A stretch of DNA of 32,000 bases, taken from NCBI RefSeq assembly GCF_001735745.1, contig NZ_CP017260.1, positions 1,260,001-1,292,000 on the forward strand, read 5' to 3'. The notes beneath the pieces are model-generated. The model searched no databases. It was given only the letters and a program-made list of their open reading frames with translations, and was not told the origin of the DNA. Position numbers and translations under genes: made by a program. Position 1 is the first letter of the stretch. The number at the start of each line of letters is the position of its first letter. Below, piece by piece: positions 14,898-32,000 of this stretch. The stretch is from Formosa sp. Hel1_33_131 (GTDB taxonomy: Bacteria > Bacteroidota > Bacteroidia > Flavobacteriales > Flavobacteriaceae).

Positions 14898-14940
14898 CCC
14901 CTCTATTTATTAGGGGGATCTTTGTTTTTAATTACTTTTG
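14898..14940 (+). promoter_or_regulatory. glnK-amtB promoter candidate: 20-bp box CCCCTCTATTTATTAGGGGG, 15-nt spacer, -7 box TACTTTTG
   Basis: TACTTTTG (14933-14940) matches TAnnTTTG, 23 nt before the glnK ATG. The box (14898-14917) has the same length and offset as the one at 12322. Confidence 0.5.
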
Positions 14941-14963
14941 AGGACAAACTAAAAATTAATTCA

Positions 14964-15302
14964 ATGAAAAAAGTAGAGGCAATCATTAGAAAATCTAAGT
15001 TTTCTGGTGTCAAAAAAGCACTGCACGAAGTCGGTGTCAATTTCTTTTCCTATTGGGACGTTACTGGCCTAGGAAACGAAAAAGAAGGCCATGTGTACAG
15101 GGGTGTTTCTTATAGCACGAGTGATATTCAAAGACGTTATTTATCTATTGTCGTGAACGATGATTTTGAAGAGGCAACGATCAAAGCCATCCTAACAGCT
15201 GCCTCAACAGGTGAGGTTGGCGATGGGAAAATTTTTGTATCACAGGTCGATGAAGTATATAGAATTAGAACCGGCGAAAAAGGCGGAAACACATTAAAAT
15301 AA
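14964..15302 (+). CDS. glnK: nitrogen regulatory protein P-II
   Basis: The ORF track starts at a TTG (14922). The ATG at 14964 gives a 112-aa protein, MKKVEAIIRKSKFSGVKKALHEVGV...GHVYRGVSY...TGEVGDGKIFVSQVDEVYRIRTGE, with P-II T-loop YRG and B-loop GDGKIF motifs. It lies 5 nt upstream of amtB. Confidence 0.92.
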   Translation: MKKVEAIIRKSKFSGVKKALHEVGVNFFSYWDVTGLGNEKEGHVYRGVSYSTSDIQRRYLSIVVNDDFEEATIKAILTAASTGEVGDGKIFVSQVDEVYRIRTGEKGGNTLK

Positions 15303-15307
15303 CAACA

Positions 15308-16549
15308 ATGGAATTACTTACTATCAATAACGTATGGATGATGATCTGTACGGCACTCGTCTTTTTTATGCATACCGGATTTGCGTTTCTCGAAATCGGA
15401 CTCACACGTCAAAAAAACACGATTAATATTTTATTTAAAAACATCTTTATTATCACGGCAGGACTTTTACTTTATTATGTCGTCGGCTTTAACTTAATGT
15501 ACCCAGGTGATTTTAATGGCGTCCTTGGATTTGCAGGTTTTGGATTGGATGCACCTTTAGCAGACGGAGCTTTTGATTTAGCATATAGCGAAGGCTATAC
15601 CTATTGGACTGACTTTTTATTCCAAGGTATGTTTGCCGCAACGGCTGCTACCATTGTTTCAGGTGCTGTCGCAGAGCGCATGAAAATTGGTGCTTTTATG
15701 ATTTTCACGGTCTTCTATGTAGGATTCGTGTATCCAATTGCGGGATCTTGGCAATGGGGTGGTGGATTTTTATCCTCATTAACTATTGGAGAAGCCGAAG
15801 GCTTTTATGACTTTGCAGGATCTACACTTGTACACTCTGTGGGTGGATGGGCTGCTTTGGTGGCTGTTTACCTTCTCGGTTCACGTATTGGGAAATTTAA
15901 CAACGGAAAGCCACAGGCTATTCCTGGGCACAGCATTCCATTAGCAACGGCTGGGGTTCTTATTCTTTGGTTAGGATGGTTTGGTTTTAACGGAGGATCT
16001 GTACTCTCTGCTGATCCAGAAGCAACGTCCTTAACGTTGGTAACGACTTGTTTGGCTGCTGCTGCGGGTGGTGTCATCGCAATGATTACCTCAACACTTT
16101 TATACAAAAACTTAGATTTAACAATGTTCCTGAATGGAATTTTAGGAGGTCTTGTAGGAATTACGGCGGGTGCCGATCAGATGAGTCCAGGAGATGCAAT
16201 TCTGATTGGAGCGATCGCTGGAGCACTTATTGTATTTGCCGTGAGCTTGGTCGATAAAATAAAGTTAGACGATCCCGTAGGTGCCATTGCGGTACACCTT
16301 ATTTGTGGAATTTGGGGAACCTTAGCGGTGGGTCTTTTTGGAGCCAAAGCAGGCTTTGATCAATTTCTAGTTCAACTTGTAGGGGTTCTGTGTTACGGCG
16401 TATTTTGTGTCGCAACCTCTTTTATTATTATATACACCTTAAAGAAAACAGTGGGTATTAGAGTTTCGGAGCGTGAAGAGCTCGAAGGGCTTGATGCACA
16501 CGAACATAAAATGGATGCTTACCCCGATTTCAGGTTAAATGAGCACTAA
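15308..16549 (+). CDS. amtB: ammonium transporter (Amt family), copy 2
   Basis: 413 aa with motifs FFMHTGFAFLEIG, DFAGSTLVHSVGG and AIAVHLICGIWGT. Forms the classic glnK-amtB pair. Confidence 0.95.
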   Translation: MELLTINNVWMMICTALVFFMHTGFAFLEIGLTRQKNTINILFKNIFIITAGLLLYYVVGFNLMYPGDFNGVLGFAGFGLDAPLADGAFDLAYSEGYTYWTDFLFQGMFAATAATIVSGAVAERMKIGAFMIFTVFYVGFVYPIAGSWQWGGGFLSSLTIGEAEGFYDFAGSTLVHSVGGWAALVAVYLLGSRIGKFNNGKPQAIPGHSIPLATAGVLILWLGWFGFNGGSVLSADPEATSLTLVTTCLAAAAGGVIAMITSTLLYKNLDLTMFLNGILGGLVGITAGADQMSPGDAILIGAIAGALIVFAVSLVDKIKLDDPVGAIAVHLICGIWGTLAVGLFGAKAGFDQFLVQLVGVLCYGVFCVATSFIIIYTLKKTVGIRVSEREELEGLDAHEHKMDAYPDFRLNEH

Positions 16550-16572
16550 CCACTTATTTCAAATTAGTCAAC

Positions 16573-16605
16573 AAAAAGCCTCTAAAATAATTTTAGAGGC
16601 TTTTT
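16573..16605. terminator. bidirectional terminator between convergent amtB and ppc
   Basis: Perfect 15-bp palindrome AAAAAGCCTCTAAAA-TAA-TTTTAGAGGCTTTTT with A/T runs on both sides. Confidence 0.85.
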
Positions 16606-16626
16606 AATTTGATGTAAATTTTGATT

Positions 16627-19206
16627 TTATGCAGAGTTTCGACTCGCATTGATATTCCCAAATAAAGAGCGCATGACAATTTTCTCGTACGTTTCTATCT
16701 GAGCTTCGTCTCTAGGCTCTTCTTTTTCAAGTTCCTGAATTTTCTTTAAGGCATATTGTTGGATCGTTAATAACGGCAATACAATCGATTCTCTAACGGA
16801 GATAGAAGCCTTTCCAGCAGGTTCCTCTTCCATCAACTCCTCATAACCGGTTAGTTTTAATAACAATCGTTTTGTGGTGATGTATTCGCTATAAATGAGA
16901 TTCCAAAAAGCACCGTATTCAGGGTCTTCAGACATGTACTTTGTCAAATCAAAGAAGGATTTAGACAAGGACATCATGCTATTTTCAATCAGTGTTTTGA
17001 AAAAATCTGAGGTTTGAAACAAGTGTTGTGCTTTGTCAAACTCGCCAATGTCTTCATAATGTTTGAGGGCGGTTCCAACGCCAAAGAATCCAGGGACATT
17101 TTGTTTCAACTGACTCCAAGAACCTACAAATGGAATGGCGCGTAAATCTTCAAACACCAAGCCTTCTGCTTTTCCACGTTTTGAAGGACGACTCCCAATA
17201 TTGGTTTTCGCATAAAACTTCAAAGTACTCATGTGTTCTAAGTAAGAAATAAACTTAGGATGCGCTTTAAAATCTACATAGGCCTCATAACTCAATTTAG
17301 ACAACTGCGCCATGACCTCTCTATTTTCAGGCGTCATTCTAAGGTCTTTATCACTAAGACTGTTATGAATTCCAGAGCTGATCAATTGTTCAAGATTGTA
17401 TTGTGAGGAGTCTAAGGTTCCAAAATTTGAACTGATCGTTTGCCCTTGTATGGTAAGCTGCACTTCTTTATCCTCGATTGTAGGTCCTAAAGACGCATAA
17501 AAATTATGTGTTTTTCCACCCCCTCTTGCAGGCGGGCCGCCTCGACCGTCAAAGAAAATTACGGTGATGTCAAATTTTCTAGACATCTCCGTTAGCAATT
17601 CTTTTGCTTTATAAATAGCCCAATTGGCCATTAAATAGCCACCATCTTTTGTACCGTCACTAAACCCAAGCATTATGGTTTGTCTGTTGCCACGTGCTTT
17701 TAGATGTGCCATATAATTAGGATTCGAATACAAATCTTCCATTACGGAAGGTGCATTTTCTAAATCGGTGATCGTTTCAAAAAGAGGCGCCACATCAACC
17801 GTTAGTTTGTCGTGAAAAGCGACCAACTTAAGCATGGCATACAATTGCATCACATGAAGTGTTGTCTGGTTGTTGCTTATAATATAGCGGTTGGCTGCCT
17901 TCTCTCCATTGGTTTGTTGAATGGTTTTTATGGCCTCCATTGTCTTGAGAGCCTTCAATGTATCTTTGTCTGAAATTAATGACAAATCTACTGAGCCTTT
18001 AATTGTCGAAAGAATTTTAATTTGATCTTTTTCTGCTAAGCTGTGGTAGTTTTTAGGAAATACATCGCTACCACTTTCAATCGACACATTTACCATGTCA
18101 TTAAACACTTTGGCGTGTTCGCGACTGTCTTGACGGATGTCTAGAGTAGAAAAATGAAATCCAAATAAATGAATCTTATTTAACAGACTGTTCACTTCAG
18201 AAACATAGAGCGACTGGTGTTTTTCAATAATAGCCTCTTTAATTTCTTTTAACTCTGCGGTTAAATACTCGACTGTTAAGCTCGACTTTTTATGTGTTAT
18301 AATCTTGTAAAGCTCGACTTCCAATGCTGTTATACGCTCTTCGACGCCCGCAAAAGATAATTTTCTTTTTAGTCCGCGGATGTCTCGGTAGTAATTTTTA
18401 ATGATCGTTTCACGAAGTCTCGCCGCCACTTTGAGCGTGATTTCTGGGGTCACAAAAGGATTGCCATCTCTGTCGCCTCCGGGCCAAAAACCAATGTTAA
18501 TAATATCGTTATCAATATGCTTCCCATCAAAAATATTTTGTTGAATGTAATCATAAACGGTTCCAAAAGACTTGTAAAATACATGCTCTAAATACCAAAT
18601 TAGACTGACCGCTTCATCGTAGGGTGTTGGTTTGGTTTGTTTGAAAAAAGGTGTTTTACCGAGTTGTGCTAACAGTTCGTTGATGCGAAATAAATCATTT
18701 TCGCGGATGGCTTCCGTTAAATCGGTGATGATCCCCAATACAGAGCCGGGGTAAAATTGCGTGGGATGCGCCGTGAGCACAATACGCACTTTAAATTCTT
18801 CTAAATATTTTTGTAGAATTTCTAATTTATTTTCAGAGGTAGCGGTTTCTTTTAAACTTCTCAAGGTTCCAATTCCGTCCATATTGTTTACAATAGGAAA
18901 CGCAGCATCTTCAATGGCATCAAACAACACCACTTGACGTTCTATGTACTGTATAAAACGAAACAGTAAATTGATTTGACTTTTAGGCGAGCGTCGGGCT
19001 TGGTATTTTTTAAAAAATGAGTTTACAATTGTGGTAGGGTCTTCATTATTCGCAAATCCTTTTTGACAGGTCTCAAAAAAAAGTGGCAACAACGCGCCTG
19101 TTTTGGTAATGGAATCAAACGGCAAGGTCATAAATATACTGTTGTATATTTGATATTTGGATAATACGTTTTGATTGAACCTGGTAATTTTTGGCTGTGT
19201 GGACAT
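16627..19206 (-). CDS. ppc: phosphoenolpyruvate carboxylase
   Basis: 859 aa with VLTAHPTQF and FFDGRGGPPARGGGKTH motifs characteristic of PEPC. Confidence 0.93.
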   Translation of the reverse strand: MSTQPKITRFNQNVLSKYQIYNSIFMTLPFDSITKTGALLPLFFETCQKGFANNEDPTTIVNSFFKKYQARRSPKSQINLLFRFIQYIERQVVLFDAIEDAAFPIVNNMDGIGTLRSLKETATSENKLEILQKYLEEFKVRIVLTAHPTQFYPGSVLGIITDLTEAIRENDLFRINELLAQLGKTPFFKQTKPTPYDEAVSLIWYLEHVFYKSFGTVYDYIQQNIFDGKHIDNDIINIGFWPGGDRDGNPFVTPEITLKVAARLRETIIKNYYRDIRGLKRKLSFAGVEERITALEVELYKIITHKKSSLTVEYLTAELKEIKEAIIEKHQSLYVSEVNSLLNKIHLFGFHFSTLDIRQDSREHAKVFNDMVNVSIESGSDVFPKNYHSLAEKDQIKILSTIKGSVDLSLISDKDTLKALKTMEAIKTIQQTNGEKAANRYIISNNQTTLHVMQLYAMLKLVAFHDKLTVDVAPLFETITDLENAPSVMEDLYSNPNYMAHLKARGNRQTIMLGFSDGTKDGGYLMANWAIYKAKELLTEMSRKFDITVIFFDGRGGPPARGGGKTHNFYASLGPTIEDKEVQLTIQGQTISSNFGTLDSSQYNLEQLISSGIHNSLSDKDLRMTPENREVMAQLSKLSYEAYVDFKAHPKFISYLEHMSTLKFYAKTNIGSRPSKRGKAEGLVFEDLRAIPFVGSWSQLKQNVPGFFGVGTALKHYEDIGEFDKAQHLFQTSDFFKTLIENSMMSLSKSFFDLTKYMSEDPEYGAFWNLIYSEYITTKRLLLKLTGYEELMEEEPAGKASISVRESIVLPLLTIQQYALKKIQELEKEEPRDEAQIETYEKIVMRSLFGNINASRNSA

Positions 19207-21562: not shown

Positions 21563-21600
21563 CTTCCGATTTACGAATAAACGTTAAACTATTCAATGAC

Positions 21601-21632
21601 AAAAGCCACCAGTTTTCACGGGTGGCTTTTTT
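21601..21632 (+). terminator. rho-independent terminator after the aldehyde dehydrogenase
   Basis: AAAAGCCACC (21601-21610), a 10-nt loop, GGTGGCTTTT (21621-21630), then TT. Confidence 0.8.
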
Positions 21633-21664
21633 GTTTCATTTTTTTTTTGTAGTTTGCAAACGCC

Positions 21665-22828
21665 ATGAATCTGATACAATATCCTACTATTTATCTTGAA
21701 CAAAAAACGCACAAAAAAGAAAGTCAGCTTTTACTGAAATTTTCTTTTGACAACACGTTAATAGGGCTTATTAAATCTATAAGAGGCACTCATTGGAGTA
21801 AAACCATGAATGCTTGGTACCTTAAAAATTCCGAAGAGAATTTATCACTTATTTTAGAATTATTTAAAGGTGTTACTAAGGTAGATACCTCAAAAGTTAT
21901 CAAAAAAACACACTTCAAAAGAAACTTAACAGAATCACAAAGAAAATTGTTAAATGCTTTTTATTTATTCTTGAAAGGTAAACGGTACAGCAAAAGCACC
22001 ATACAAACCTATACTTTTTTTATAGCAGACTTTATAAATTTTCATACAAAGACACCCATAGAAGAACTTACAAACAGAGATGTAGAACTATTTATAGAAA
22101 CCGTTTTTATAGAACGAAAGTATTCTGTTAGTTCGCAAAGACAATTTATAAGTGCCTTAAAGATATTTACTACTTTTTGTCCGCAAACAAAGATTAATGA
22201 TTTGTCTTTAGAGCGACCAAAAAAATCTAGAATACTTCCTAATATATTGTCTCAAGAAGAGGTGATAAGAATTATACAATACACACAAAACATAAAGCAT
22301 AGGGCTATTTTAACTTTAATATATTCTTGTGGATTGCGAATAGGAGAGCTTATCAATTTAAAATTAGTTGATTTTCATATTGAAAGAAAGCAACTTATTG
22401 TAAAAGAAGGAAAAGGCAGAAAAGACAGGTTTGTAAGTCTAGCAGATAGTTTTCTCCCGTTGTTATCTAACTATTATTCTTCTTATAAACCAACAATCTA
22501 TTTTGTTGAAGGACAAAATGGAGGTAAGTATAGTGCTGAAAGTATTCGAAGTTTTTTAAGAAAAAGCTGTAAAAAGGCAGGTATAAAAAAGCCTGTAACA
22601 CCACATACATTAAGGCATAGTTATGCTACACATTTGTTAGAAAATGGAGTAGATTTAAGATACATACAATCTTTATTGGGTCATTCAAAACCCGAAACTA
22701 CTATGATTTATACCCATGTACAAAGAAAAGATTTAATGGAAATACAAAATCCTTTGGATGTGGCATTACAAAAATTAAATAAAATAAATAATAACAAACA
22801 AAAAGTTGTGTTATCCCGTAATATATAA
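21665..22828 (+). CDS. tyrosine-type site-specific recombinase/integrase heading the accessory island
   Basis: 387 aa. Catalytic residues are all readable: R in CGLRIGELINL, K in EGKGRKDRFVSL, H-x-x-R in HTLRHSYATHL, H in LLGHSKPETT and Y in MIYTHV. An N-terminal SAM-like/core-binding region precedes them. Confidence 0.92.
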   Translation: MNLIQYPTIYLEQKTHKKESQLLLKFSFDNTLIGLIKSIRGTHWSKTMNAWYLKNSEENLSLILELFKGVTKVDTSKVIKKTHFKRNLTESQRKLLNAFYLFLKGKRYSKSTIQTYTFFIADFINFHTKTPIEELTNRDVELFIETVFIERKYSVSSQRQFISALKIFTTFCPQTKINDLSLERPKKSRILPNILSQEEVIRIIQYTQNIKHRAILTLIYSCGLRIGELINLKLVDFHIERKQLIVKEGKGRKDRFVSLADSFLPLLSNYYSSYKPTIYFVEGQNGGKYSAESIRSFLRKSCKKAGIKKPVTPHTLRHSYATHLLENGVDLRYIQSLLGHSKPETTMIYTHVQRKDLMEIQNPLDVALQKLNKINNNKQKVVLSRNI

Positions 22829-22838
22829 CCGTTAACAC
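22826..22838 (+). other. minimal TAAC-C-GTTA-ACAC junction overlapping the recombinase stop codon (attI-like candidate)
   Basis: TAACCGTTAACAC. TAAC/GTTA form an inverted pair around one base. The following TAACAC matches the first 6 nt of the left ends of the 188/189-bp elements. Confidence 0.35.
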
Positions 22839-22884
22839 ACCCTTTTGTTGACATATAACTAGTTACCCATCATTAAAAAAAACT

Positions 22885-23484
22885 ATGATTTGGAATAAAC
22901 TTCCACATTGCGATAAATTATTTGAGAAGTTTCTCAGTCCTTGGTATCCAGAAAACGAGAGACCAAAAATGACTCGTCCGGATATGTGTGTAATATCAGG
23001 GTATGAAGACAAAACCTTGGACATTGACAAAATCCAATATCTAACCAAAGAAGGCTTAAAGGAGACAAAAGATATTTTTAATACCATGAGAGAATCCTAT
23101 CAAAGAGACTTTCAAAATTTCAAAGAATTCAAAGAACTGGATTTGGACGTAATAGATTCAGTTGACAAAGCATTTGATAAAAAAGAAGTAAAAGAGCTCA
23201 TCAAAATGAGTGACCCTAAAGATTTCGGAAACGGGTACTTAGTTACTGTTTGTGAATTCGGTTTGGCTCTTGGTGACTTATTCGTCCAAACTGGAAAATT
23301 TAAATGGCTTTATTCATATCCATATTTTCATTCAATTGTTGTCAACCCTGAAACAGGACAAGGAATAACAGTGTTTGATTGGGCTGTTAAAAAATTCAGT
23401 TCTTATGGAATCGATGATGGCTATAAATGGAAGTTTATGAAAGTAATGGAATTGATAGAAGAAGACATTAAAAACGTTGGGTAA
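22885..23484 (+). CDS. hypothetical protein, first cassette-like ORF
   Basis: 199-aa ORF on the array strand with no family recognised by eye. Its TAA stop (23482-23484) is the first 3 nt of repeat element 23482-23669. Confidence 0.7.
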   Translation: MIWNKLPHCDKLFEKFLSPWYPENERPKMTRPDMCVISGYEDKTLDIDKIQYLTKEGLKETKDIFNTMRESYQRDFQNFKEFKELDLDVIDSVDKAFDKKEVKELIKMSDPKDFGNGYLVTVCEFGLALGDLFVQTGKFKWLYSYPYFHSIVVNPETGQGITVFDWAVKKFSSYGIDDGYKWKFMKVMELIEEDIKNVG

Positions 23485-23669
23485 CACTGTATATAGCAAA
23501 TAGGGCGTTCGGTGGTTTACGAGAGTTCATTGCTATTTACCAACACCACCAAATCGTTGATTTGGCTTTTAAAATGAATAAATTAAAAACAAAATACAAC
23601 GCTTTGGCTCAGTGCAAACTTGAAAGTTTATCACTTTCTACTGCCCTACATGCCTTATACTAAACGTTA
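23482..23669 (+). repeat. 188-bp element with imperfect terminal inverted repeats (attC-like candidate), copy 1
   Basis: Left end is TAACACTGTATATAGCAAATAGGGC (23482-23506) and right end is GCCCTACATGCCTTATACTAAACGTTA (23643-23669). It is homologous end to end with 30487-30675. Confidence 0.75.
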
Positions 23670-23837
23670 TACCCAATTCAAAAAATATTTTCCTAAGAGA
23701 TAAAACAATGATAGACTTTCTAAAGGGGAAATAGATTTGATTTTTTCTAAAACAAAAGAAGGAGGGATAATAGATTTCTCCGCTACCGCTTCGAAATGAA
23801 TAATTTTATAAATTTTTAATTTTTAACCTTAATTACT

Positions 23838-24440
23838 ATGATAAATATTTTTAATAAGTTTTTTGAAAAAAAATATATGCTTGAAAAAACAAGTAAAATG
23901 TTAGATGAGAATGTATTTTGGGATATCATTGATTTGTCTTTAAAAAATACAAATAATAAAGATAGTCAAGAAATTTTTTTAGTTAAAGAAATTCAAAAGT
24001 TAAGTCCAGAAGAAATAATTGGTTTTAGACTCAGGACTGATAAATTGTTATATGACACTTATAACTCAGAAATGTGGTGCGCAGGATATTTGATGAACGG
24101 AGGTTGTTCCGATGATGGGTTTGAATATTTTAGAAATTGGGTTATTTCAAGAGGAAAAGATACTTATTATAATGCTAAAAATAATTCTGATTCACTAATC
24201 AGTGAAATAGCAGATGAAGATGAATATGAATATGATTTTGAAAGTTTTTGGTATGTTGCATTAACTGCATTTGAAAACAAAACAGGAAAAGAATTATATG
24301 ATTATATATCAGATGACTTTAAAACAAATGAAGGAAATTATCCTCAATTTGAATTTAATTGGGAAGAAGAAAAACCTGAAACCATGAAGTCTATATGCCC
24401 CAAGTTATTTGAAAAGTTTTGGAATTTCAAATTAGTTTAA
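23838..24440 (+). CDS. DUF4240-like protein
   Basis: 200 aa. FWDIIDLS near the N-terminus and EMWCAGYLMNGGCSDDGFEYFRNWVISRGKDTYYNA match my memory of the DUF4240 signature. Confidence 0.8.
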   Translation: MINIFNKFFEKKYMLEKTSKMLDENVFWDIIDLSLKNTNNKDSQEIFLVKEIQKLSPEEIIGFRLRTDKLLYDTYNSEMWCAGYLMNGGCSDDGFEYFRNWVISRGKDTYYNAKNNSDSLISEIADEDEYEYDFESFWYVALTAFENKTGKELYDYISDDFKTNEGNYPQFEFNWEEEKPETMKSICPKLFEKFWNFKLV

Positions 24441-24450
24441 GTAAAATAAC

Positions 24451-24981
24451 ATGAGCAAGACAGCTGCTGAGCTAATGGCTGAATTAGCAAACAATAAAGA
24501 GTATCTAGATAAGAAAAAAAGGCAAGATGAGAAATTTGCTAATTTAGAAAAAATTTATACTGAAGATGAGCGTAAATTAGTTGCCGAATTAAGTAAATCG
24601 GGCTATCCAGTTCGATCGGTTTGGGATTTTGTTAATTCTGATAATTACTATTTAGGCGCAGTGCCTATTTTAATAAATCATTTGAAGGCTAAGCATCACC
24701 CTAAAATACTAGCTGGATTGGCGAGGTCATTGGCAGTTGCTGAGCTTTCAAGCAACGATGAACTTTGGGAGCTATTATTAAATCTTTATGATCAGACTCT
24801 TTCAGATTCTGAAATTAGTGTTCCAGAAGAACGTGGTGCGCAAGAATCCATCGCCGTAGCACTAGAATGCTTAGCTATCAGCTCCAGAGCTGATGGTCTT
24901 AAGAAACTTATAAGCAGAAATCCCAAAGGAGATGGAGTTCGCTGGCTTAAAGATAAATTAAAATATTTTTGTCAAAATTAA
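24451..24981 (+). CDS. hypothetical protein, helical-repeat-like
   Basis: 176-aa ORF, 10 nt after the previous stop on the same strand. No family recognised by eye. Confidence 0.7.
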   Translation: MSKTAAELMAELANNKEYLDKKKRQDEKFANLEKIYTEDERKLVAELSKSGYPVRSVWDFVNSDNYYLGAVPILINHLKAKHHPKILAGLARSLAVAELSSNDELWELLLNLYDQTLSDSEISVPEERGAQESIAVALECLAISSRADGLKKLISRNPKGDGVRWLKDKLKYFCQN

Positions 24982-24991
24982 CATTCAAATC

Positions 24992-25477
24992 ATGAACAAA
25001 AGAACTGTTACAAAAGTCGGTGATATTTTTGAAGTAGTAATCGAAGAGGGTTATAAAAAATATATTCAATTGGTTGCCATAGATAGCCATCAATTAAATA
25101 GTGATGTTATTTGTGTTTTTGAAACAAAATATCGTTTCGACGAAAAACCATCAATTGATTTAATCACTTCAGATAGAATGGATTTCTATACACATACAAC
25201 AGTTAGCGCAGGGGTAAAATGGCTGGATTGGGTAAAAATAGGAAGAAGTGATGAATTAGGGCGGTTAGATAATTTAATTTTTAAACACACAGATGACTAC
25301 GGACATGGAGTAGAGCAATCTAACTTTTGGAGAGTATGGGGAGTAAGTGGTAAAATTTATCGCATAGGAAATCTTACAGATCAATATCGAAAGACTGAGT
25401 ATGGCCTTATTTTCTCCCCGGAAAGTGTGGTCGAAAGAATGCGTACAGGAGAGGTTGACCCATACTACCCCGGCTGA
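24992..25477 (+). CDS. hypothetical protein, possible polymorphic-toxin immunity protein (K-x-GDIF N-terminus)
   Basis: 161-aa ORF, 10 nt after the previous stop. The N-terminal TKVGDIFEVVIEEG motif resembles PKKGDIFFINIDGVG in ORF 26907-27395. The Imm26-like assignment is from memory only. Confidence 0.7.
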   Translation: MNKRTVTKVGDIFEVVIEEGYKKYIQLVAIDSHQLNSDVICVFETKYRFDEKPSIDLITSDRMDFYTHTTVSAGVKWLDWVKIGRSDELGRLDNLIFKHTDDYGHGVEQSNFWRVWGVSGKIYRIGNLTDQYRKTEYGLIFSPESVVERMRTGEVDPYYPG

Positions 25478-25635
25478 TTGGTAATTTTTCCGTAAAATGA
25501 CTGATGTGAGATGCAAAAATTGCTCAAAGAAAATTTTATGAACTTAAAAGAGCTCGATATATGTTAAACTTTAATACTATTTATTTAGATGAGTCTGATA
25601 GAAAAACGAATAATTTCTAAAACCTATAAACAAGC

Positions 25636-26169
25636 ATGTTCAAAACAATACAATTCAAAGATGTTTTCCCAGAGCATTTTGGTTTCTTTCTGATGAGTCC
25701 TAAAAAACTGTCAACTTTTCATGATTTTGGTATAGAAGGTAAAAACCTTCTAGAAATTTACTCCAATTCAGACTTAGGGGATAAAGTAACTGAAGAGGGT
25801 ATTATCATTCCTATTTTGGAAGTTGAAGCTGATTATTATGATATAATTATTCATGATAAAGCAGAAGCAAGTTATATAGAAGACACCAAGAGAGCTTTCT
25901 CCTCACAAGGATGGATATTTTTTTCTACTGGAGAATTAATTTTTTCGAGTATTTCTCTTTTACTTAAGTGGGACTCAGACCATCCAAAGCTTTGTAATGC
26001 AAACCTTCCTAAAGGCTGGTACGAAGTATCTATTTATGGAGGGCTGGTTAAAGAAACCCCCACCTTTGAATTTGTATTTACTAAGTCTGATAAAAAACCT
26101 CAATACAATGGAAACTTAAATGAATTAAACCTCCGAGGTGTAGGAGTTTATAAAGTTAAAGAATTGTAA
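25636..26169 (+). CDS. hypothetical protein; weak resemblance to ComJ/Nin-type nuclease-inhibitor immunity proteins
   Basis: 177-aa ORF. The segments FPEHFGFFLM and LPKGWYEVSIYGG recall the ComJ pattern (QFTVF ... LPKGDYQL) as I remember it. This is unverified. Confidence 0.65.
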   Translation: MFKTIQFKDVFPEHFGFFLMSPKKLSTFHDFGIEGKNLLEIYSNSDLGDKVTEEGIIIPILEVEADYYDIIIHDKAEASYIEDTKRAFSSQGWIFFSTGELIFSSISLLLKWDSDHPKLCNANLPKGWYEVSIYGGLVKETPTFEFVFTKSDKKPQYNGNLNELNLRGVGVYKVKEL

Positions 26170-26195
26170 TTTATGTTAAAATTAATATTCAGATT

Positions 26196-26735
26196 ATGAA
26201 AAAAATCGACCCATTTAAAATACTTGGTACTGCTGTGAATAGTAAAAAGCAACAGCCACTAGAAGAAATTGTAATTATTGCAAGCCCTCAAACATTAAGA
26301 GAAATCGCCGTATTTCTGATTAATGCTGCTTATGAGATGGAGGTCAATGACTTTGATCATATGCATCTTCAGGATTCAATAGCTAATTTTTCATCGAAGA
26401 AGCATGCTGATATTATTGCTCACATAGATTACGATACGTCAAATCCAAAAAAATCTCTTGAGAAAAAAACTAATGAAAAATAAACAAAACAACTCATTAC
26501 ACATATTCGAGAGTCTTTATATAACCTAGGTTGGCTTATTAAAATAAATTTAGAAGATACTCAGTACAAAAATATTAAAATAAAAATTTTTGAAAGAGGT
26601 AACATAGATAATAAAGATGACTGGATTCATTGTAAGATTGAAAATAAAATATTCGAAGGTGCTTGTGGACCATTAAACCTAATCGAACTAATTCAATGTT
26701 TTAAGAATATAATAGAAGAACAAAAACTTGGTTAA
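26196..26735 (+). pseudogene. hypothetical gene split by a single in-frame TAA (95 codons, stop, then 83 open codons)
   Basis: ORF 26196-26483 ends in TAA (26481-26483). The same frame then stays open for 83 codons (TKQLITHIRESLYNLGWLIKINLEDTQYKNIKIKIFERGNIDNKDDWIHCKIENKIFEGACGPLNLIELIQCFKNIIEEQKLG) to the TAA at 26733-26735. No ATG/GTG/TTG occurs in that stretch. Confidence 0.55.
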
Positions 26736-26906
26736 AAAATTCATATTAACTAACGTAAGATTATTGCTATATTTAGTAGGTAGTCCAGCTTGTTTTGGTT
26801 TGTATCCTTGGGATGAATTTTATGATTCAAACTATTTTGATATGCTGCTTGTATCACTCAACAAAAAAATTTATGGAATAACTTATAAATAATAATTTTA
26901 ACATCT

Positions 26907-27395
26907 ATGAAACTAAGTGAATTACATTCTAAAATGAATGGCGGAAAACGAAGATTAAAACCCAAAAAAGGAGATATATTTTTCATTAACATTGATGGTG
27001 TTGGGCACATACCAGGGATGGTAGCCAAGGATGACATGAAATATGGCAGCACTCCATGTTTCTTGATATACATATATAATATTGTATTGAATCACAAGAA
27101 TGAGAAGTTTGAGATCAACAAAGGCGATTTGTTGATGCCTCCCTGCATGGTGCTAAGAAATAACTGGGAGCCAACTATTGGGTTTGAGCATCAATTTACT
27201 CTTGAAACTGATAAGATTGATGTTTTCCTCAACCACTGCTTTGGTGACGACGTACAGCCTGGAATTTATTTTGACGAATTTCAGAATCGATGCGAATATT
27301 TCGAACCATTCGCAGATAATTCGCTAGTTAACGTTACTGTGATTGCCTGGAAAATCATGAAAATAGTCAATGGAATAGAGGTTGAGAGGGATTGA
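26907..27395 (+). CDS. hypothetical protein, possible immunity protein (K-x-GDIF N-terminus)
   Basis: 162-aa ORF on the array strand. The N-terminal LKPKKGDIFFINIDGVGHIPGMV is shared with ORF 24992. Confidence 0.7.
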   Translation: MKLSELHSKMNGGKRRLKPKKGDIFFINIDGVGHIPGMVAKDDMKYGSTPCFLIYIYNIVLNHKNEKFEINKGDLLMPPCMVLRNNWEPTIGFEHQFTLETDKIDVFLNHCFGDDVQPGIYFDEFQNRCEYFEPFADNSLVNVTVIAWKIMKIVNGIEVERD

Positions 27396-27432
27396 ATTTT
27401 TTAAATAGAGGGTTATTTATCTTTCATTAAGA

Positions 27433-27630
27433 TTGAAAGGTTTGTACCAAGAAATAGGGTTACAGACAAAATCAAAATATTTTAGTAAATCAAAGTCTAA
27501 TTTTGCAGATTTAGCGGATTTCAAATTCGAGAAAATGACTACGGATTATTTAGATATTTACCATAAGATTAACGAGTCGGATATGAAAAGTATTTTGAAT
27601 TTTGCGATTTATTTATATCACATGAGATGA
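27433..27630 (+). CDS. small hypothetical ORF (TTG start), doubtful
   Basis: 65 aa, lysine-rich, with a non-ATG start. Its TGA stop lies 5 nt before the TAAC of the short site at 27636. Confidence 0.3.
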   Translation: MKGLYQEIGLQTKSKYFSKSKSNFADLADFKFEKMTTDYLDIYHKINESDMKSILNFAIYLYHMR

Positions 27631-27635
27631 AGGAA

Positions 27636-27652
27636 TAACGGCGCACAACACC
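27636..27652 (+). repeat. left part of a short TAACGG...CCGTTA site interrupted by the IS
   Basis: TAACGGCGCACAACACC. The partner half is at 29371-29424, and the 10-bp GCACAACACC is repeated on both sides of the IS. Confidence 0.45.
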
Positions 27653-27657
27653 GGTAA

Positions 27658-29370
27658 CCGTTGCACAAGCCCTCTAAAAAAGTAAAAAACCTTCCTTTTT
27701 AAGCCGATTTACAGGATGTATTATTAAAAAATGAGTGTGCTATTTTGTTTTTTTGAGGGGCTTACACAAGACCAAAACACCTTTATAAAGAGGGTTATTT
27801 CTAAAAAAACAACCCCAAGTGATTTCGCCTCACTTCTTGCCAGTTTCTGAGTGAATTTTAGATACTTTTTCAGGTTGTAAGCCATCGCAGATAAGTGCAT
27901 GACTTTGTTGGCTTGTTGTATGCCAAGGGTGTTGATCTTTCTCAGGCCCATAAACTGAGTGAGTGTTCCAAAAACAGGTTCTACGGTGCTTTGACGTTTG
28001 CGTTTCATAAAGCGTCCTTGTTTGCTGTGCACTCGGGCATTGTTTCGCTCATATTCCTCTCGGTAATAGGTCACTGAAAACTTCTTTTCTTTGGCTGTTT
28101 TCCCCAAGCATTGGAGTGCTATTGGACAGCCTTTGCATTGTTTGGTCGAACCGCGGTATTCTTTCTTTCTCGTGTGGGTTCTATAATCGTTAAATACTTT
28201 TTTGAAGGGAATCACTTCCCCTTGTGGACATACGTAATGATCCTCTTTTTTATGGTAAACAAATCCCTCGGGACCACCTTTGTAGGTGCCATGCGGAGGA
28301 ATGAAACTTTGTTTGTTGACGCCTTCTAAAAAGGCATAGTTCTCGCCACTGCTATATCCTGTGTCGGCGACACAGTTTTGCCATAGTAATCCTTGTTTCC
28401 ATAAACGCTTGTCTAATCGTTTTACGATATCTTGCAAGTATTGATTGTCTTTCTTATCGGCATGGTAGGCTTGGATGTCGGTGATGACATGATGGGCGGT
28501 GTCCACACTAAGTTGACTCATATAATTGAGCTTTCTGGCTTTGCCTGGTTTTACACTGATTCGGGCATCGGGGTCGGTGGGACTGTAATGGGTCTTATTA
28601 CTGGTGTATTTACTGCCTTTGTTCCCTGCACCGGGTCGCTGGTCTTGGTCGTTTGACCATTTCTTGTTGCGACTCTTTATTGCGCCTAGTTCTTGCTTAT
28701 TGGCACTAAGGGTTTGTTGGGTTTTAGGGGCTTTATTGTCTTTGGCTTGACGATGGGGCTTATCCATTCGGCTGATATGACGGAGCTGATGCAAGTGTGT
28801 TTCTAAGTCTTCTTTGGGAACTTTGAGCTCTAAACTGTCCATGGATGCATTGGCTTTTACTGGGGCTGAGTCGATGGTTTGGGTGTGACCGCTGACCATG
28901 CCTTTGGAAATACATAATTCTAACACTTTGGTAAAGGCCTCTTAAAACAGGCTTTCGGGAAACAACTGACGTGTACGACTGATCGTTGAATGCCATGGAA
29001 GTTCATCATCGATGTCATAGCCGAGGAAATACAAAATATCCATACGCATACTGCAATGGGATATCAATTTGCGATCGCTAATGATGTTTTCTAAATATCC
29101 GACCAAACACAGTTTGAAAAAAACTACGGGATCTACGCTTTTTTGTCCACTTGTCCCATAATAAGAACGCGTCAAGCGATACAAATATTCTAATTCTAAA
29201 ACGTTTCCTAACTGGCGATAAAAATTATCTTTTGGTATCCGTTCGCTCAAACTAAAGCAAGCAAACAGCTTTTCTTGGTAGGTCTTTTTTCCTTGCATCC
29301 ATAAATTTAAGAATTTTTATGAAAATTTAAAACTTATTTTGTAGTTTTATCATAAATAGTTGTGCAACAG
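27658..29370 (-). mobile_element. insertion sequence, IS1182/IS5-like, about 1.7 kb
   Basis: Terminal inverted repeats are CCGTTGCACAA (27658-27668) and TTGTGCAACAG (29360-29370; reverse complement CTGTTGCACAA). They enclose a DDE transposase gene. A direct repeat GCACAACACC lies just outside, at 27643-27652 and 29371-29380. Exact ends are uncertain by a few nt. Confidence 0.75.
27724..29298 (-). pseudogene. IS1182/IS5-family DDE transposase interrupted by one in-frame TAA
   Basis: ORFs 28942-29298 (InsH/DUF772-like N-terminus, ...HSTISRTRQLFPESLF) and 27724-28926 are in the same frame, separated only by the TAA at 28939-28941 (...ESLF*EAFTKVLELCISKG...). The C-terminus VEPVFGTLTQFMGLRKINTLG...AMAYNLKKYLKF is typical of this transposase group. 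Confidence 0.8.
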
Positions 29371-29424
29371 GCACAACACCTATACGCAATGCCCTTCGGG
29401 ACACTGCGCATAGCCAAACCGTTA
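29371..29424 (+). repeat. right part of the short TAACGG...CCGTTA site
   Basis: GCACAACACCTATACGCAATGCCCTTCGGGACACTGCGCATAGCCAAACCGTTA. The terminal CCGTTAT is the inverted complement of ATAACGG at 27635-27641. The trailing GTTATGCTCAATT resembles GTTATACCCAATT at 23666-23678. Confidence 0.45.
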
Positions 29425-29435
29425 TGCTCAATTAA

Positions 29436-29762
29436 ATGCAAAGACCAATAAAAAATATATGGATTGAGAGTGAAGACAAAGGAGCAATTATTGGCGGAAC
29501 TGAGGAAATAAATGACAATTCTGATGTAATTGTGACTTTTGATGATAAAAGTAAATATGTTGCTACATTCTTTACCTACGATAATATCGAGTATCTAAGA
29601 CAGAAGAATAGACAAACTGGTGAATGTCTAGATGGACGATTTTTCTGGGCTTCTGATATGATAATTATTGAAAGAATTAATAGAAAGGAAGTTGTAGAAA
29701 TTATTGAACACCTTATCAAAGAAAAAGAGTTTGAATCTATTTTTGACCAAATCACTGAATAA
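29436..29762 (+). CDS. hypothetical protein (108 aa)
   Basis: ORF begins 12 nt after the short site. No family recognised. It lies 3 nt upstream of the zinc-ribbon ORF. Confidence 0.65.
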   Translation: MQRPIKNIWIESEDKGAIIGGTEEINDNSDVIVTFDDKSKYVATFFTYDNIEYLRQKNRQTGECLDGRFFWASDMIIIERINRKEVVEIIEHLIKEKEFESIFDQITE

Positions 29763-29765
29763 TAA

Positions 29766-30002
29766 ATGGCTACTCAAATCTGTCCTAACTGCAAAAAAGA
29801 TTCATTTACTTGGAGCATAGATGAAGAAGAATCTCCTTTAACATACTGGGGATGCTACGAATGTAAATATGGAGCATACGAAGACGAATCTAAAGAAAGA
29901 ATCTGTAGTAATTGTGAAAAGAAAACAGAAAGTAGATTGAAAGATGAAGAGAAAGAATATTGGTGGTGTTCCAGCTGTAACTCTATATCAGAAATCAACT
30001 AA
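29766..30002 (+). CDS. small double zinc-ribbon protein
   Basis: 78 aa with four CxxC pairs (CPNCKK, CYECKY, CSNCEK, CSSCNS) in ribbon-like spacing. Confidence 0.65.
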   Translation: MATQICPNCKKDSFTWSIDEEESPLTYWGCYECKYGAYEDESKERICSNCEKKTESRLKDEEKEYWWCSSCNSISEIN

Positions 30003-30203
30003 CTTTTTCAAAGGAACTTCCAAAGCTTTAGCGATTTCCAAAAGTGAATAGATTGTTGGGTTGACTTTTCCATTCTCCAACTTTTCTAATGCCTGTCTAT
30101 CTTTATTGCAAGCACGAGCCAAATCTGACTGACTCCAGCCCTTCTGACTTCTTAACTCAATAATACGCTGACCGACTTTCTTTTTAAGTTGTTCTTTATC
30201 CAC
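29988..30203 (-). CDS. XRE-family helix-turn-helix transcriptional regulator (antitoxin/repressor candidate)
   Basis: HTH core IIELRSQKGWSQSDLARACNKDRQALEKLENGKVNPTIYSLLEIAKAL. The ORF track uses TTG 30245, but that extension would be encoded by the operator-like repeats. I prefer GTG 30203 (MDKEQLKKKVGQR...), though the start is uncertain. Confidence 0.8.
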   Translation of the reverse strand: MDKEQLKKKVGQRIIELRSQKGWSQSDLARACNKDRQALEKLENGKVNPTIYSLLEIAKALEVPLKKLVDF

Positions 30204-30210
30204 AAAACAA

Positions 30211-30299
30211 ATGTCATCTAATAATATGACATTTTTGTCATACAAAAGTTTGACAACTCAATTTGAATTACTATGTTTGTCATATAAATAGTTGACAAT
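30211..30299. promoter_or_regulatory. operator-like repeats between the divergent XRE and SymE-like genes
   Basis: Palindrome ATGTCAT-N8-ATGACAT (30211-30232), plus two about 24-nt direct repeats: TTTGTCATACAAAAGTTTGACAAC (30234-30257) and TTTGTCATATAAATAGTTGACAAT (30276-30299). Confidence 0.55.
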
Positions 30300-30499
30300 T
30301 GAGTAAATTCAGGATTTTAAAAATATACAGTAAGTTCCGTTATCGAACGTGGGACAATACAACTGTACCTGAAATAAGACTTGAAGGAAGATGGCTTGAG
30401 AAACTCGGATTTGAGCAAGGAAATGAAGTGTTAATTGAACAGAAAAAGAATAAGTTGATAATAACTGTGAAGAAAGAAAAAGAGCATAACACTGTATAA
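30299..30499 (+). CDS. SymE-like / AbrB-fold toxin-family protein
   Basis: 66 aa (TTG start). ...VPEIRLEGRWLEKLGFEQGNEVLIEQKKNKLIITV matches the SymE/SpoVT-AbrB pattern (IRL-G-WL---GF--G--V-----------L-I). Its stop lies inside the left end of repeat element 30487-30675. Confidence 0.7.
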   Translation: MSKFRILKIYSKFRYRTWDNTTVPEIRLEGRWLEKLGFEQGNEVLIEQKKNKLIITVKKEKEHNTV

Positions 30500-30675
30500 A
30501 AAAACATAGGGCATTTCTGCAAACCCGAAAGGTCAGTGAATAATACTAAGTCCGCCAAATATAAAATTTGACGTTTAAGACAAAAAAGATAAAAGCAAAA
30601 TATTATATTTGGCTAAGTACCAATTCGTAACGAAAGTGCTTTTAACCGCCCTACGTTTCTTATACGTAGACGTTG
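30487..30675 (+). repeat. 189-bp element with imperfect terminal inverted repeats (attC-like candidate), copy 2
   Basis: Left end is TAACACTGTATAAAAAAACATAGGGC (30487-30512) and right end is GCCCTACGTTTCTTATACGTAGACGTTG (30648-30675). Same orientation and length class as 23482-23669. Confidence 0.75.
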
Positions 30676-30724
30676 AAAAACAGCTAGTTTATAAATATAA
30701 ATTCTGCTATTATTTTTATTTTTT

Positions 30725-30767
30725 AGTAAACGTTTTTGTTTACTAATTAAATATTTTATATGTTTAC
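30725..30767 (+). promoter_or_regulatory. operator-like inverted repeat upstream of the HTH/nucleotidyltransferase pair
   Basis: AGTAAAC (30725-30731), 6 nt, GTTTACT (30738-30744), plus a third half-site GTTTAC at 30762-30767, 17 nt before the ATG. Confidence 0.4.
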
Positions 30768-30783
30768 ATGAAACAGCGGAATC

Positions 30784-31293
30784 ATGTTACCAAGATTAAA
30801 TAAAATTAAAGGAATACACCCAGGCACACTGTTAAGGTGGGAATTAAATAACCGAAATCTAAAAGGCAGTGAATTAGCGGATGCGATTGGCGAGCATAAA
30901 CAAACCATAAGTGCTATTCTTAATAAAAGGAGGGCCATAAACCCAAGTCTTTCTATTAAGTTATCAAAAGAGTTTAAAACAGACAACGATTACTTCATGT
31001 TATTACAAGCAAGTTATGACGTAAAATTAGTAGCGGAATCTGAAATAAAAAACACACCAAATCTCAATAATATAAGGAAAGTGCTTTTTTGGGATACTAA
31101 TTTTAATAACATTGATTGGAACAAAAATAAAAAAGCCGTCATACAGAGAATTTTAGAAAGAGGGAATAAAACTGAAATAAATGAACTCATTTTATTCTAT
31201 GGAAGAAAAACGATTTCCAAGGAAATTAAATCAATAAAGAAAAGCCACTTACCTTCTTTTGAGAAGAATATTATAGAGCATAATTTGAAATAA
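30784..31293 (+). CDS. HigA/VapI-like XRE HTH protein with a C-terminal extension (antitoxin candidate)
   Basis: 169 aa. The N-terminus IHPGTLLRWELNNRNLKGSELADAIGEHKQTISAILNKRRAINPSLSIKLSKEF is HigA-type. It is followed by about 80 extra residues (FWDTNFNNIDWNKNKKAVIQRILERGN...). It ends 4 nt before the next gene. Confidence 0.8.
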   Translation: MLPRLNKIKGIHPGTLLRWELNNRNLKGSELADAIGEHKQTISAILNKRRAINPSLSIKLSKEFKTDNDYFMLLQASYDVKLVAESEIKNTPNLNNIRKVLFWDTNFNNIDWNKNKKAVIQRILERGNKTEINELILFYGRKTISKEIKSIKKSHLPSFEKNIIEHNLK

Positions 31294-31297
31294 CAAA

Positions 31298-31945
31298 ATG
31301 GAGTTATTCTTAAATACTGTTTCCGATTTGCTTTGGAATTCTCTAAAACAATTAATGTCAATGGAGGTCTTTAATAGTTTTAGAATTGTTGGAGGCACCT
31401 CATTAAGTCTTCAACTAGGTCATAGAGAGTCCGTTGACATCGATTTATTTACAGATGCTGATTATGATAGTATCGCGTTTTCTTTACTTGAAACTAAATT
31501 GACTAAAACCTTTCCTTATGTAGATATATCACCCGTTGATTTGGTAGGAATGGGCAAGTCGTATTTTATTGGCAACAATGAAAATGAATGTGTAAAATTA
31601 GATTTATTTTACACAGATCCTTTTGTTTTCCCTTGTATTCTGGAACAAGGAGTTAGGTTTGCAAGTATTGAAGAAGTTGCGGCAATGAAATTTGAAGTAA
31701 TTGCTAATGGTGGCAGGAAAAAAGATTTTTGGGATGTCCACGAACTATTAGAAACTTACACGTTAGATGAAATGATAGACTTTTATCTCAAAAGAAGTCC
31801 ATATGGTTATTCAAAAGATGAATTACTCCTGAAAGTCGTTGATTTTTCTGATGCAGAAGACGATTTTACACCAAACTGCCTTAGAGGAAAAGTCTGGGAA
31901 TTAATTAAGTTAGATTTTGAAGTTAAAACCGATAAAATTATATGA
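31298..31945 (+). CDS. AbiEii/AbiGii-family nucleotidyltransferase (toxin candidate)
   Basis: 215 aa. FRIVGGTSLSLQLGHRESVDIDLFTD matches the GGTAL...HR-S-D-DLF nucleotidyltransferase motif of the AbiEii/DUF1814 family. Confidence 0.8.
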   Translation: MELFLNTVSDLLWNSLKQLMSMEVFNSFRIVGGTSLSLQLGHRESVDIDLFTDADYDSIAFSLLETKLTKTFPYVDISPVDLVGMGKSYFIGNNENECVKLDLFYTDPFVFPCILEQGVRFASIEEVAAMKFEVIANGGRKKDFWDVHELLETYTLDEMIDFYLKRSPYGYSKDELLLKVVDFSDAEDDFTPNCLRGKVWELIKLDFEVKTDKII

Positions 31946-32000
31946 ATCAAAGTCAATAAATTAGAGATTTGGTGGAACCAAAACACTCCTAACTATACTT

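Follow-up and report, generated by a model that had tools for sequence, protein, structure and literature searches.

Two kinds of described system come closest to the locus that we analyze here. The recombinase-associated acquired interbacterial defense (rAID-1) arrays combine skewed GC content, an XerD-family recombinase, integron-like intergenic repeats, and orphan immunity genes, and homologs more than 50% identical to the Bacteroides fragilis recombinase BF9343_RS08045 were found only in the rAID context, in Bacteroidales (Ross et al., bioRxiv 10.1101/471110). The biogenesis of rAID arrays was still called an open question in 2025 (PMC12247911). Integrons are reported to be almost absent from Bacteroidetes in their canonical form, with a single complete integron found there by IntegronFinder 2.0. 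Our literature search for a system of this kind in Flavobacteriia or Polaribacter found no description. Here, we examine a stretch of 32,000 nucleotides (nt) from the chromosome of Formosa sp. Hel1_33_131 (Flavobacteriaceae; NZ_CP017260.1, positions 1,260,001 to 1,292,000; hereafter, the window), in which a tyrosine recombinase gene is followed by an array of short genes. We class the locus with rAID arrays and integrons, as an integron-like platform of Bacteroidota, and do not regard it as an island devoted to immunity. In all likelihood, it is a chromosomal integron-like cassette platform, served by an Xer/IntI-related recombinase that has an N-terminal accessory module and lacks the insertion typical of IntI.

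RESULTS

An AT-rich array headed by a recombinase gene

The GC content of the window is 0.394 over positions 1-21600, 0.289 in the recombinase gene (21665-22828, + strand), and 0.319 in the array when its insertion sequence (IS) is left out. The shift lies at 21.6 kb, which we take as the left edge of an AT-rich island. At this edge, a terminator-like hairpin with a T-run (inverted repeat I5; 21586-21645, + strand) is found 3′ of an aldehyde dehydrogenase gene. Within the island, the GC content is lowest in the recombinase gene itself, despite its constant locus across species. Downstream of it, there are 15 more open reading frames (ORFs) of 65 to 215 amino acids (aa), and 14 of them are on the + strand; the exception is the helix-turn-helix (HTH) gene HTH85 (29988-30245). 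An earlier note on this DNA, made from the sequence alone, had placed a change of character at about 21.6 kb, followed by an AT-rich array of at least 12 short ORFs that are nearly all on the strand of the recombinase gene, and our counts agree with it. Scans for terminators and sigma-70 promoters gave matches at background level, the sigma-70 scan not being valid for promoters of Bacteroidota.

Sequence variation begins at a GTT next to the recombinase gene

An attI-like site (22826-22864, + strand; ATATAAC-CGTTAACAC…GTTGAC-ATATAAC-TAGTT) overlaps the stop codon of the recombinase gene, and its crossover triplet GTT occupies positions 22862-22864. In relatives, a site of the same plan (…ATATAAC-(palindrome)-ATATAAC-N-AGTT) is located directly 3′ of the stop codon, with unrelated sequence beyond it. 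This pattern of conservation up to GTT and divergence after it was seen across Polaribacter, Gillisia, and others. Ten metagenomic contigs, whose recombinase genes are at least 99.8% identical in nucleotide sequence to that of the window, are the same through …CATATAACTAGTT and then split into at least six unrelated continuations. Because contigs with near-identical recombinase genes split at this point, the first cassette varies within one population and the breakpoint is at GTT. The locus therefore has an insertion point adjoining the integrase gene, as the attI site of integrons does. One contig (L024) stops exactly at the GTT of the attI-like site.

Cassettes are exchanged and duplicated as discrete units

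The third cassette of the window (29424-30674, + strand) recurs in contigs L042, L043, and L047, where it is preceded by a cassette carrying Mrr and followed by a restriction-modification (R-M) cassette. At the left junction, identity between the window and L042 starts with GTT/ATGCTCAATT, and the sequences before it are unrelated. At the right end, identity extends through the site, and the sequences past GTT are unrelated. The cassette is 99.76% identical over 1,254 nt between the two, while their recombinase genes are 84.5% identical, and this difference indicates a recent horizontal exchange of a discrete module. An uncultured Polaribacter metagenome-assembled genome (L004, positions 11189-13698) carries a perfect tandem duplication of a 1,255-bp cassette (100% identity), in which the units are bounded exactly by the GTT of the attI-like site and the GTT of an attC-like site. 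The earlier note had suggested that differences in gene presence and absence would break at the site junctions; across contigs, the breakpoints are exactly at GTT.

The sites form a structured, oriented family linked to the recombinase gene

In a k-mer enrichment analysis of relatives, CAACACCGT was found 21 times downstream and never upstream of the recombinase gene. The attC-like element is 135 to 138 nt long and reads CAAC-ACC-GTRYAW…ATTGC…(variable center)…GCAAC…WTRYAC-AAMMAC-GTTR. Among 23 aligned copies, compensatory double changes are seen in 8 of the 13 arm pairs, and changes on one side only are almost absent. Of the arm cells, 94.3% are paired, compared to 27 to 40% with slid partners, and the observed score was reached in none of 500 shuffles. 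The covariation of the arms therefore points to selection for a hairpin. When both strands of 336 kb were searched with a covariance model built for the family, 51 matches (E < 0.2) were obtained. Among them are about 20 sites not seen before, four sites in Gillisia, and one in the window (30481-30678). All 51 are downstream of a recombinase gene and on its strand, which argues against repeats scattered without linkage to the recombinase, a possibility that the earlier note had raised.

The sites of the window belong to a divergent subtype, with arms ending in TAGGGC/GCCCTA. Because a Polaribacter-trained covariance model is insensitive to them, we adopted a model-free descriptor with controls. 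Downstream of recombinase genes, the descriptor found 38 sites on 83 kb of + strand, compared to 5 to 8 in each of the three other compartments. In the window, it found three sites on the + strand of the island, none on its − strand, and none on either strand of the 21.6-kb core; shuffled sequence gave a mean of 0.2 matches. These results are consistent with the earlier description of inverted-repeat TAAC…GTTA sites on or next to upstream stop codons.

When folded as single-stranded DNA, the bottom strand is more stable in 50 of 52 sites (by 2.9 kcal/mol on average, P = 3e−9). The 5′ ends of cassettes have GTT-R-N5-MATT in common, with an A at position +10 in all 47 junctions, and this cassette-start box mirrors AATAAC-N6-CAAC, which is often present at the left end of a site. 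An Rfam search with the repeats matched no family, and no terminator-like T-tracts were found at the attC-like sites.

The recombinase and its relatives

The 387-aa recombinase is built of an N-terminal accessory module followed by core-binding (SAM_4) and catalytic domains. It matches the Pfam families Phage_integrase (E = 2e−39) and Phage_int_SAM_4 (E = 3.6e−21) and has all catalytic residues (R225, K250, H314, R317, H340, and Y349), as had been read from the sequence previously. By sequence, it belongs to the Xer/IntI group. Among NCBIfam models, its score exceeds the cutoff for XerA_Arch (220.8 bits, cutoff 220) but not for the “integron integrase” TIGR02249 (210 bits, cutoff 265), XerD (193 bits), or XerC (186 bits; both cutoffs about 330), and the match to PRK15417 is also below the cutoff (166 versus 435 bits). 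The nearest solved structures are those of archaeal XerA (5hxy and 4a8e), followed by VchIntIA/IntI4 (2a3v). In the alignment to VchIntIA, only query residues 271-293 are matched to IntI residues 181-246. This break coincides with the IntI-specific domain, and we conclude that the domain is absent from the recombinase.

The N-terminal module (approximately residues 8-77) is predicted to fold as β-β-α-β-β-α-β, with a predicted local distance difference test score of around 70 to 80. It is kept across the recombinase family, and a search with the module matched 345 representative clusters (E ≤ 0.001); in most of the matches listed, it is at or near the N-terminus. A separate subfamily of recombinases of 540 to 550 aa, from environmental Bacteroidales and other Bacteroidota (contigs L019 and L020 and proteins P0121-P0240), has about three of these modules in tandem. 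The genes of this subfamily head co-oriented small genes that encode PD-(D/E)XK nucleases, a methyltransferase, Mrr_N, and IS110. L019 and L020 were considered as a bridge to the B. fragilis rAID and rejected, since they represent this separate subfamily, carry mixed cargo, and led to no named Bacteroides protein.

We placed the recombinase in a small neighbor-joining tree (280 columns, 200 bootstraps), in which XerC and XerD are represented by the Escherichia coli proteins and not by those of Bacteroidota. The Flavobacteriaceae family of the window’s recombinase is a clade with 99% support. A wider group, with 66% support, also takes in rAID-type integrases, the 540- to 550-aa subfamily, and the recombinase of a Chryseobacterium plasmid. 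IntI1 is united with this Bacteroidota clade at 94%, and E. coli XerC and XerD fall outside the grouping. The phylogeny that the earlier note had called for therefore sets the recombinase apart from the E. coli housekeeping proteins and together with rAID-type integrases.

Homologs of the recombinase that are 45 to 82% identical were found in 22 species-level genomes, the closest being those of Flavobacteriaceae (Polaribacter and “Flavobacterium” SCGC AAA160-P02). The order of the aldehyde dehydrogenase gene followed by the recombinase gene is retained in the closest five of the 22. We also looked for the cargo ORFs of the window in these genomes, and none occurs there except for one weak HTH match. 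The cargo is thus neither invariant nor syntenic in these relatives.

Cargo of the window and of related arrays

Pfam and NCBIfam matches among the cargo of the window include DUF4240 (E = 5.9e−32), SymE_toxin/AbrB-like (E = 1.4e−10), a HigA-like HTH protein with DUF6922, AbiEii (E = 8.3e−17), and a Zn-ribbon protein. One ORF had been called DUF4240-like, and toxin-antitoxin (TA) and abortive-infection (Abi) types of cargo had been proposed; the first assignment is confirmed, and the second is in keeping with the Pfam matches, which point to two TA/Abi modules. AbiEii is well above the Pfam cutoff (62.3 versus 22.5 bits) and is a weak match in PADLOC (3e−4). Its upstream partner is the HigA-like HTH and DUF6922 protein, which is not a recognized AbiEi. 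In the whole window, PADLOC reported only generic HTH proteins and this weak AbiEii.

Immunity families account for a small part of the cargo. An ORF at 26196-26483, which the earlier note does not mention, matches Imm32 (36.8 bits, cutoff 27), and the ORF at 26907-27395 has a sub-threshold match to Imm26 (19.5 bits, cutoff 23.3). Two proteins with a K-x-GDIF N-terminus had been assigned to the Imm26 type; the pair has no detectable relationship (BLASTP E = 36), and only the one sub-threshold match was found. A suggested resemblance to the nuclease inhibitors ComJ and Nin did not stand either, as no ComJ or Nin family was matched at E ≤ 0.1. No toxin domain was detected, in line with the reported lack of adjacent polymorphic toxin genes. 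Downstream of the recombinase genes of relatives, we examined 73 ORFs, some of which may be beyond the ends of the arrays. These are heterogeneous, with 63 Pfam families. They include DNA methylases and R-M systems, GmrSD, PD-T4-1/AAA_5, S_4TM, HTH regulators, and beta-lactamase-fold proteins, as well as flavodoxin-like proteins, HxlR, oxidoreductases, IS110, and many DUFs. None of the 25 most frequent of the 63 families is an Imm family, and singleton Imm matches are possible outside those 25. Of the earlier proposal of an acquired immunity or defense island, the Imm32 gene is solid, while the remaining support for immunity is a sub-threshold Imm26 match in an array whose relatives carry generalist cargo.

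Cassettes, sites, and IS of the window

Four cassettes follow the attI-like site. Cassette 1 (22865-23668, + strand) consists of o199 (22885-23484), which has no family match, and site S1 (23483-23668, + strand; TAAC-ACT-GTATATAGCAAATAGGGCG … CTGCCCTACATGCCTTATAC-TAAAC-GTTA). It opens with GTTA-CCCAT-CATT, which fits the cassette-start box, and S1 folds at −29.3 kcal/mol on the bottom and −24.3 kcal/mol on the top strand. Within S1, CAACACC-ACCAAAT-CGTTG (23541-23560) has left and right cores without arms and may be due to chance or a relic.

Cassette 2 (23669-29423, + strand) extends from the DUF4240 gene to o65, is broken by an IS, and ends in site S3. Its genes, all on the + strand, are DUF4240 (23838-24440), o176 (24451-24981), o161 (24992-25477), o177 (25636-26169), Imm32, the Imm26-like gene, and o65 (27433-27630). 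In about 40 contigs, the block is never broken up or rearranged, and we therefore regard it as acting as one seven-gene module. Between the Imm32 and Imm26-like genes, the 423 nt at 26484-26906 hold only a dubious 54-aa ORF with a TTG start, and two 37-nt direct repeats (25535-25571 and 26147-26183) both end in ATGTTAAA. Lost cassette boundaries or a decayed gene may have left this stretch and the repeats behind.

Site S3 (29374-29423, + strand) is compact, with the plan CAAC-ACC-TATACGCAATG-loop-CACTGCGCATA-GCCAAACC-GTT. Its folding energy is −13.9 kcal/mol (z = −3.6) for the bottom and −7.2 kcal/mol for the top strand. At its left core, there is an IS1182-family element (about 27653-29373, − strand), also absent from the earlier note, with terminal repeats around GTTGCACAA. 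Direct copies of CAACACC flank it at 27646-27652 and 29374-29380. In the window, a nonsense change at position 28944 cuts the transposase into ORFs of 118 and 400 aa; in sister contigs L041, L048, and L049, the transposase is whole (524 aa), its gene being 99.9% identical in nucleotide sequence. In L048, the sequence to the left of the IS (CAACAAT…) differs from that of the window. A “mini-site” at 27646-27666 (CAACACC-GGTAACC-GTTG) was rejected as a recombination site, as it is the second CAACACC copy at the end of the IS and does not fold.

Cassette 3 carries o108 (29436-29762), the Zn-ribbon gene (29766-30002), HTH85 as an HTH repressor gene on the − strand, and the SymE/AbrB-like gene (30299-30499). 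It ends in site S4 (30488-30674, + strand; TAAC-ACT-GTATAAAAAAACATAGGGCA … CGCCCTACGTTTCTTATAC-GTAGAC-GTT), to which the covariance-model match in the window corresponds. Between the divergent HTH85 and SymE-like genes, the region 30231-30298 has two 26-nt direct repeats, ATTTTTGTCATACAAAAGTTTGACAA and ATGTTTGTCATATAAATAGTTGACAA, which are likely operator sites for the HTH repressor.

Cassette 4, the last (30675-32000, + strand), encodes the HigA-like HTH and DUF6922 protein (30784-31293) and the AbiEii nucleotidyltransferase (31298-31945) and has no recognizable 3′ site. Sister contigs L041 and L044 to L046 continue past the window from AbiEii to AlbA_2 and an aldo-keto reductase on the − strand and then to MoxR/DUF58, and their GC content climbs to 0.37 to 0.41 3′ of AbiEii, towards core values. 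No further attC-like site was found 3′ of AbiEii in the window or the sister contigs. Given this and the return of the GC content, we place the end of the array at about the edge of the window.

Comparison with rAID-type arrays

As references, we used rAID-type arrays from a plasmid collection (Bacteroides ovatus NZ_CP081918 and Parabacteroides distasonis NZ_OY725747), in which the integrase gene is followed by genes for SMI1/KNR4, Imm26, PoNi, Tdi1, and others. The recombinase of the window is 36% identical to the B. ovatus integrase over 320 aa (E = 6e−58). The intergenic sites of B. ovatus are hairpins of 44 to 57 nt that read TAAC-…-CAAACC-ATTA, and AAACCATTA occurs six times in that array, only downstream and on the + strand. 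Their plan (AAC-stem-loop-stem-CAAACC-[A/G]TTA) is the same as that of S3 in the window (…GCCAAACC-GTTA). The rAID-1-like architecture proposed in the earlier note is upheld by this homology, by the shared site plan, and by the oriented, recombinase-linked sites.

A plasmid-borne platform was also found in Chryseobacterium sp. SNU WT5 (L063; NZ_CP041688, positions 8974-18960), with a recombinase 43% identical to that of the window. Its cargo is generalist, with genes for Crp/Fnr, RidA, a metallophosphoesterase, and SRPBCC as well as an IS110 and a group II intron. In this plasmid, three GTTG junctions are directly followed by copies of an element of about 170 nt (GGAAAAATCGCCCTTTGGGACGATTTTTCCC…).

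DISCUSSION

A family of sites with covarying arms, linked to a recombinase gene and oriented with it, together with breakpoints exactly at GTT and cassettes that are exchanged and duplicated, characterizes this locus. In the model that we propose, the recombinase gene keeps its place after the aldehyde dehydrogenase gene, and its stop codon is inside an attI-like site that ends in AAC-N-A-GTT. The number of genes per cassette ranges from one to seven, and an imperfect palindrome of the attC-like type (AAC-AC…arms…CGTTR) closes the cassette. In a circular cassette, its first bases (GTTR-N5-MATT) would complete the attC-like site, for example, as …CTTATACGTAGACGTT joined to ATGCTCAATT. Recombination of attI with attC at GTT, presumably catalyzed by the recombinase, would put such circles beside the recombinase gene, and recombination of attC with attC would remove cassettes. 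The substrate would probably be the folded bottom strand, as in integrons, and the N-terminal module may take the role of the IntI insertion in recognizing the folded site. Cassettes could be expressed by read-through from the recombinase side. The cargo would be anything useful or selfish: immunity proteins, TA and Abi modules, restriction systems, and small metabolic genes. In chromosomal integrons, TA cassettes stabilize the arrays, and by analogy, the TA and Abi cassettes of this locus may do likewise.

Several observations weigh against this reading. At the S4 junction, the spacer of 5 to 6 nt before GTT already differs between the window and L042, and the cleavage point is therefore bracketed only to the segment from spacer to GTT. 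The recombinase gene of L042 (158-1327) looks chimeric, its N-terminal half being that of the window and its C-terminal half like the L012 lineage; it is either a natural recombinant or a chimera of metagenome assembly. The evidence from populations comes from metagenome assemblies throughout, and such assemblies can be chimeric. For S1, contigs that start inside the site did not reveal an alternative upstream context. The Polaribacter-trained covariance model matches the sites of the window weakly (E = 0.16 for S4 and about 1 for S3 and the others). Cassette 2 has seven genes in 4 kb with zero internal sites, and the last cassette has no site at its 3′ end. Across 10 rAID sites, the bottom-strand folding bias is not significant.

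Could the locus instead be a bona fide rAID-1 array like those of gut Bacteroidales, devoted to orphan immunity genes that guard against contact-dependent toxins? The resemblance is considerable: both systems have a tyrosine recombinase gene at the head of short, AT-rich genes that share its orientation, with motifs that recur between the genes (here, S1, S3, S4, and the attI-like site), and the recombinase is homologous to the rAID-type integrases of B. ovatus and P. distasonis. With 14 of 15 ORFs co-directional at a GC content of 0.319, the array has far more than the two downstream genes below 41% GC expected of rAID-1. It also has immunity genes (Imm32 above the cutoff and Imm26 near it) and several small orphan ORFs without an adjacent toxin gene. 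However, immunity families were matched by only one or two of the 15 ORFs, the K-x-GDIF pair is unrelated, and the cargo here and in relatives is generalist (TA/Abi, R-M and other defense, regulators, and metabolic genes) instead of mainly orphan immunity genes. The recombinase identity of 36% to the B. ovatus integrase is well under the more than 50% reported by Ross et al. for homologs in the rAID context, and the host is a marine member of Flavobacteriaceae, in the order Flavobacteriales, and not of Bacteroidales. Moreover, the right core is GTT or GTTR here and ATT or ATTA in rAID, most Flavobacteriaceae sites are 135 to 190 nt long with conserved centers, in contrast to about 45 to 55 nt in rAID, and the locus has a fixed chromosomal position after the aldehyde dehydrogenase gene. 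We therefore consider a dedicated rAID-1 array improbable. Even less credible to us is an ordinary flexible island, whose content is swapped by homologous recombination via its flanks or repeats, the repeats being RNA elements or similar to repetitive extragenic palindromes or miniature inverted-repeat transposable elements. Hypervariable islands at fixed loci are common in marine bacteria, repeats of 135 nt with 70 to 90% similarity are enough for some homologous exchange, and an IS is present, so that the difference of L048 from the window to the left of it could reflect IS-mediated exchange. Yet, the breakpoints are exactly at GTT, even at the attI-like site, which has just about 10 nt in common with the cassette sites. 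Such an island would also not account for covarying arms, for strict orientation and linkage to the recombinase gene, or for a recombinase locus that is constant while the content changes, and the repeats have neither terminator-like T-tracts nor an Rfam match.

The likeness to integrons goes further, as the locus has a fixed integrase gene with an adjoining attI and cassettes that end in imperfect palindromes with AAC…GTT cores. As in attC sites, structure is kept over sequence and the bottom strand folds better, from which bottom-strand use may be surmised; the arms covary. The newest variation is beside the integrase gene, TA cassettes (as in sedentary chromosomal integrons) and IS insertions are found in the array, and the sites are homogeneous within a lineage, as are the VCRs of Vibrio. 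The match to TIGR02249 and the grouping with IntI1 apart from E. coli XerC and XerD would also fit a divergent true integron, with an IntI orthologue and attC sites. Nevertheless, we find this explanation hardly tenable. The alignment to 2a3v and the scores for TIGR02249 and PRK15417 show no IntI-type integrase with its additional domain, which recognizes extrahelical bases in IntI; there is an N-terminal beta/alpha module instead, and the nearest structures are XerA. The recombinase gene is co-oriented with the cassettes, cassettes are often multi-gene, definitions based on IntI do not recognize the locus as an integron, and IntegronFinder surveys report almost no integrons in Bacteroidetes. 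The fold and catalytic residues are shared with Xer recombinases, XerA being the best match in both sequence and structure. In contrast to housekeeping XerC and XerD, from whose E. coli members it is separated in the tree, this recombinase is in every case found at the head of a variable array, carries an additional module at its N-terminus, and is associated with multiple oriented hairpin sites and not one dif, and its function would not be the resolution of chromosome dimers.

On the preferred reading of an integron-like cassette platform, rAID looks like a gut-specialized branch of a generalist system. A broader conjecture, to which we give an even chance, is that Bacteroidota have a phylum-wide analogue of integrons, in which an Xer-like recombinase would recombine folded bottom-strand AAC…GTT hairpins by means of its N-terminal module, in place of the IntI insertion, as a second, independent solution to cassette capture. 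Chromosomal versions would turn over in marine populations, plasmid versions would be carried in Chryseobacterium, and the gut rAID-1 would be one specialized branch. For the question of how rAID arrays originate, this locus and its relatives supply testable parts, namely, an attI-like site and a structured attC-like family with a GTT crossover, as well as natural examples of insertion, exchange, and duplication. A recombinase that would handle hairpins without the IntI domain is of interest for the mechanism of recombination and for work on genetic tools. The platform seems to be wider than interbacterial immunity or the gut, and our observations suggest a general device for capturing genes in Polaribacter and other abundant marine Flavobacteriaceae, with a bearing on the strain-level diversity of defense and accessory functions in bloom-forming marine bacteria.

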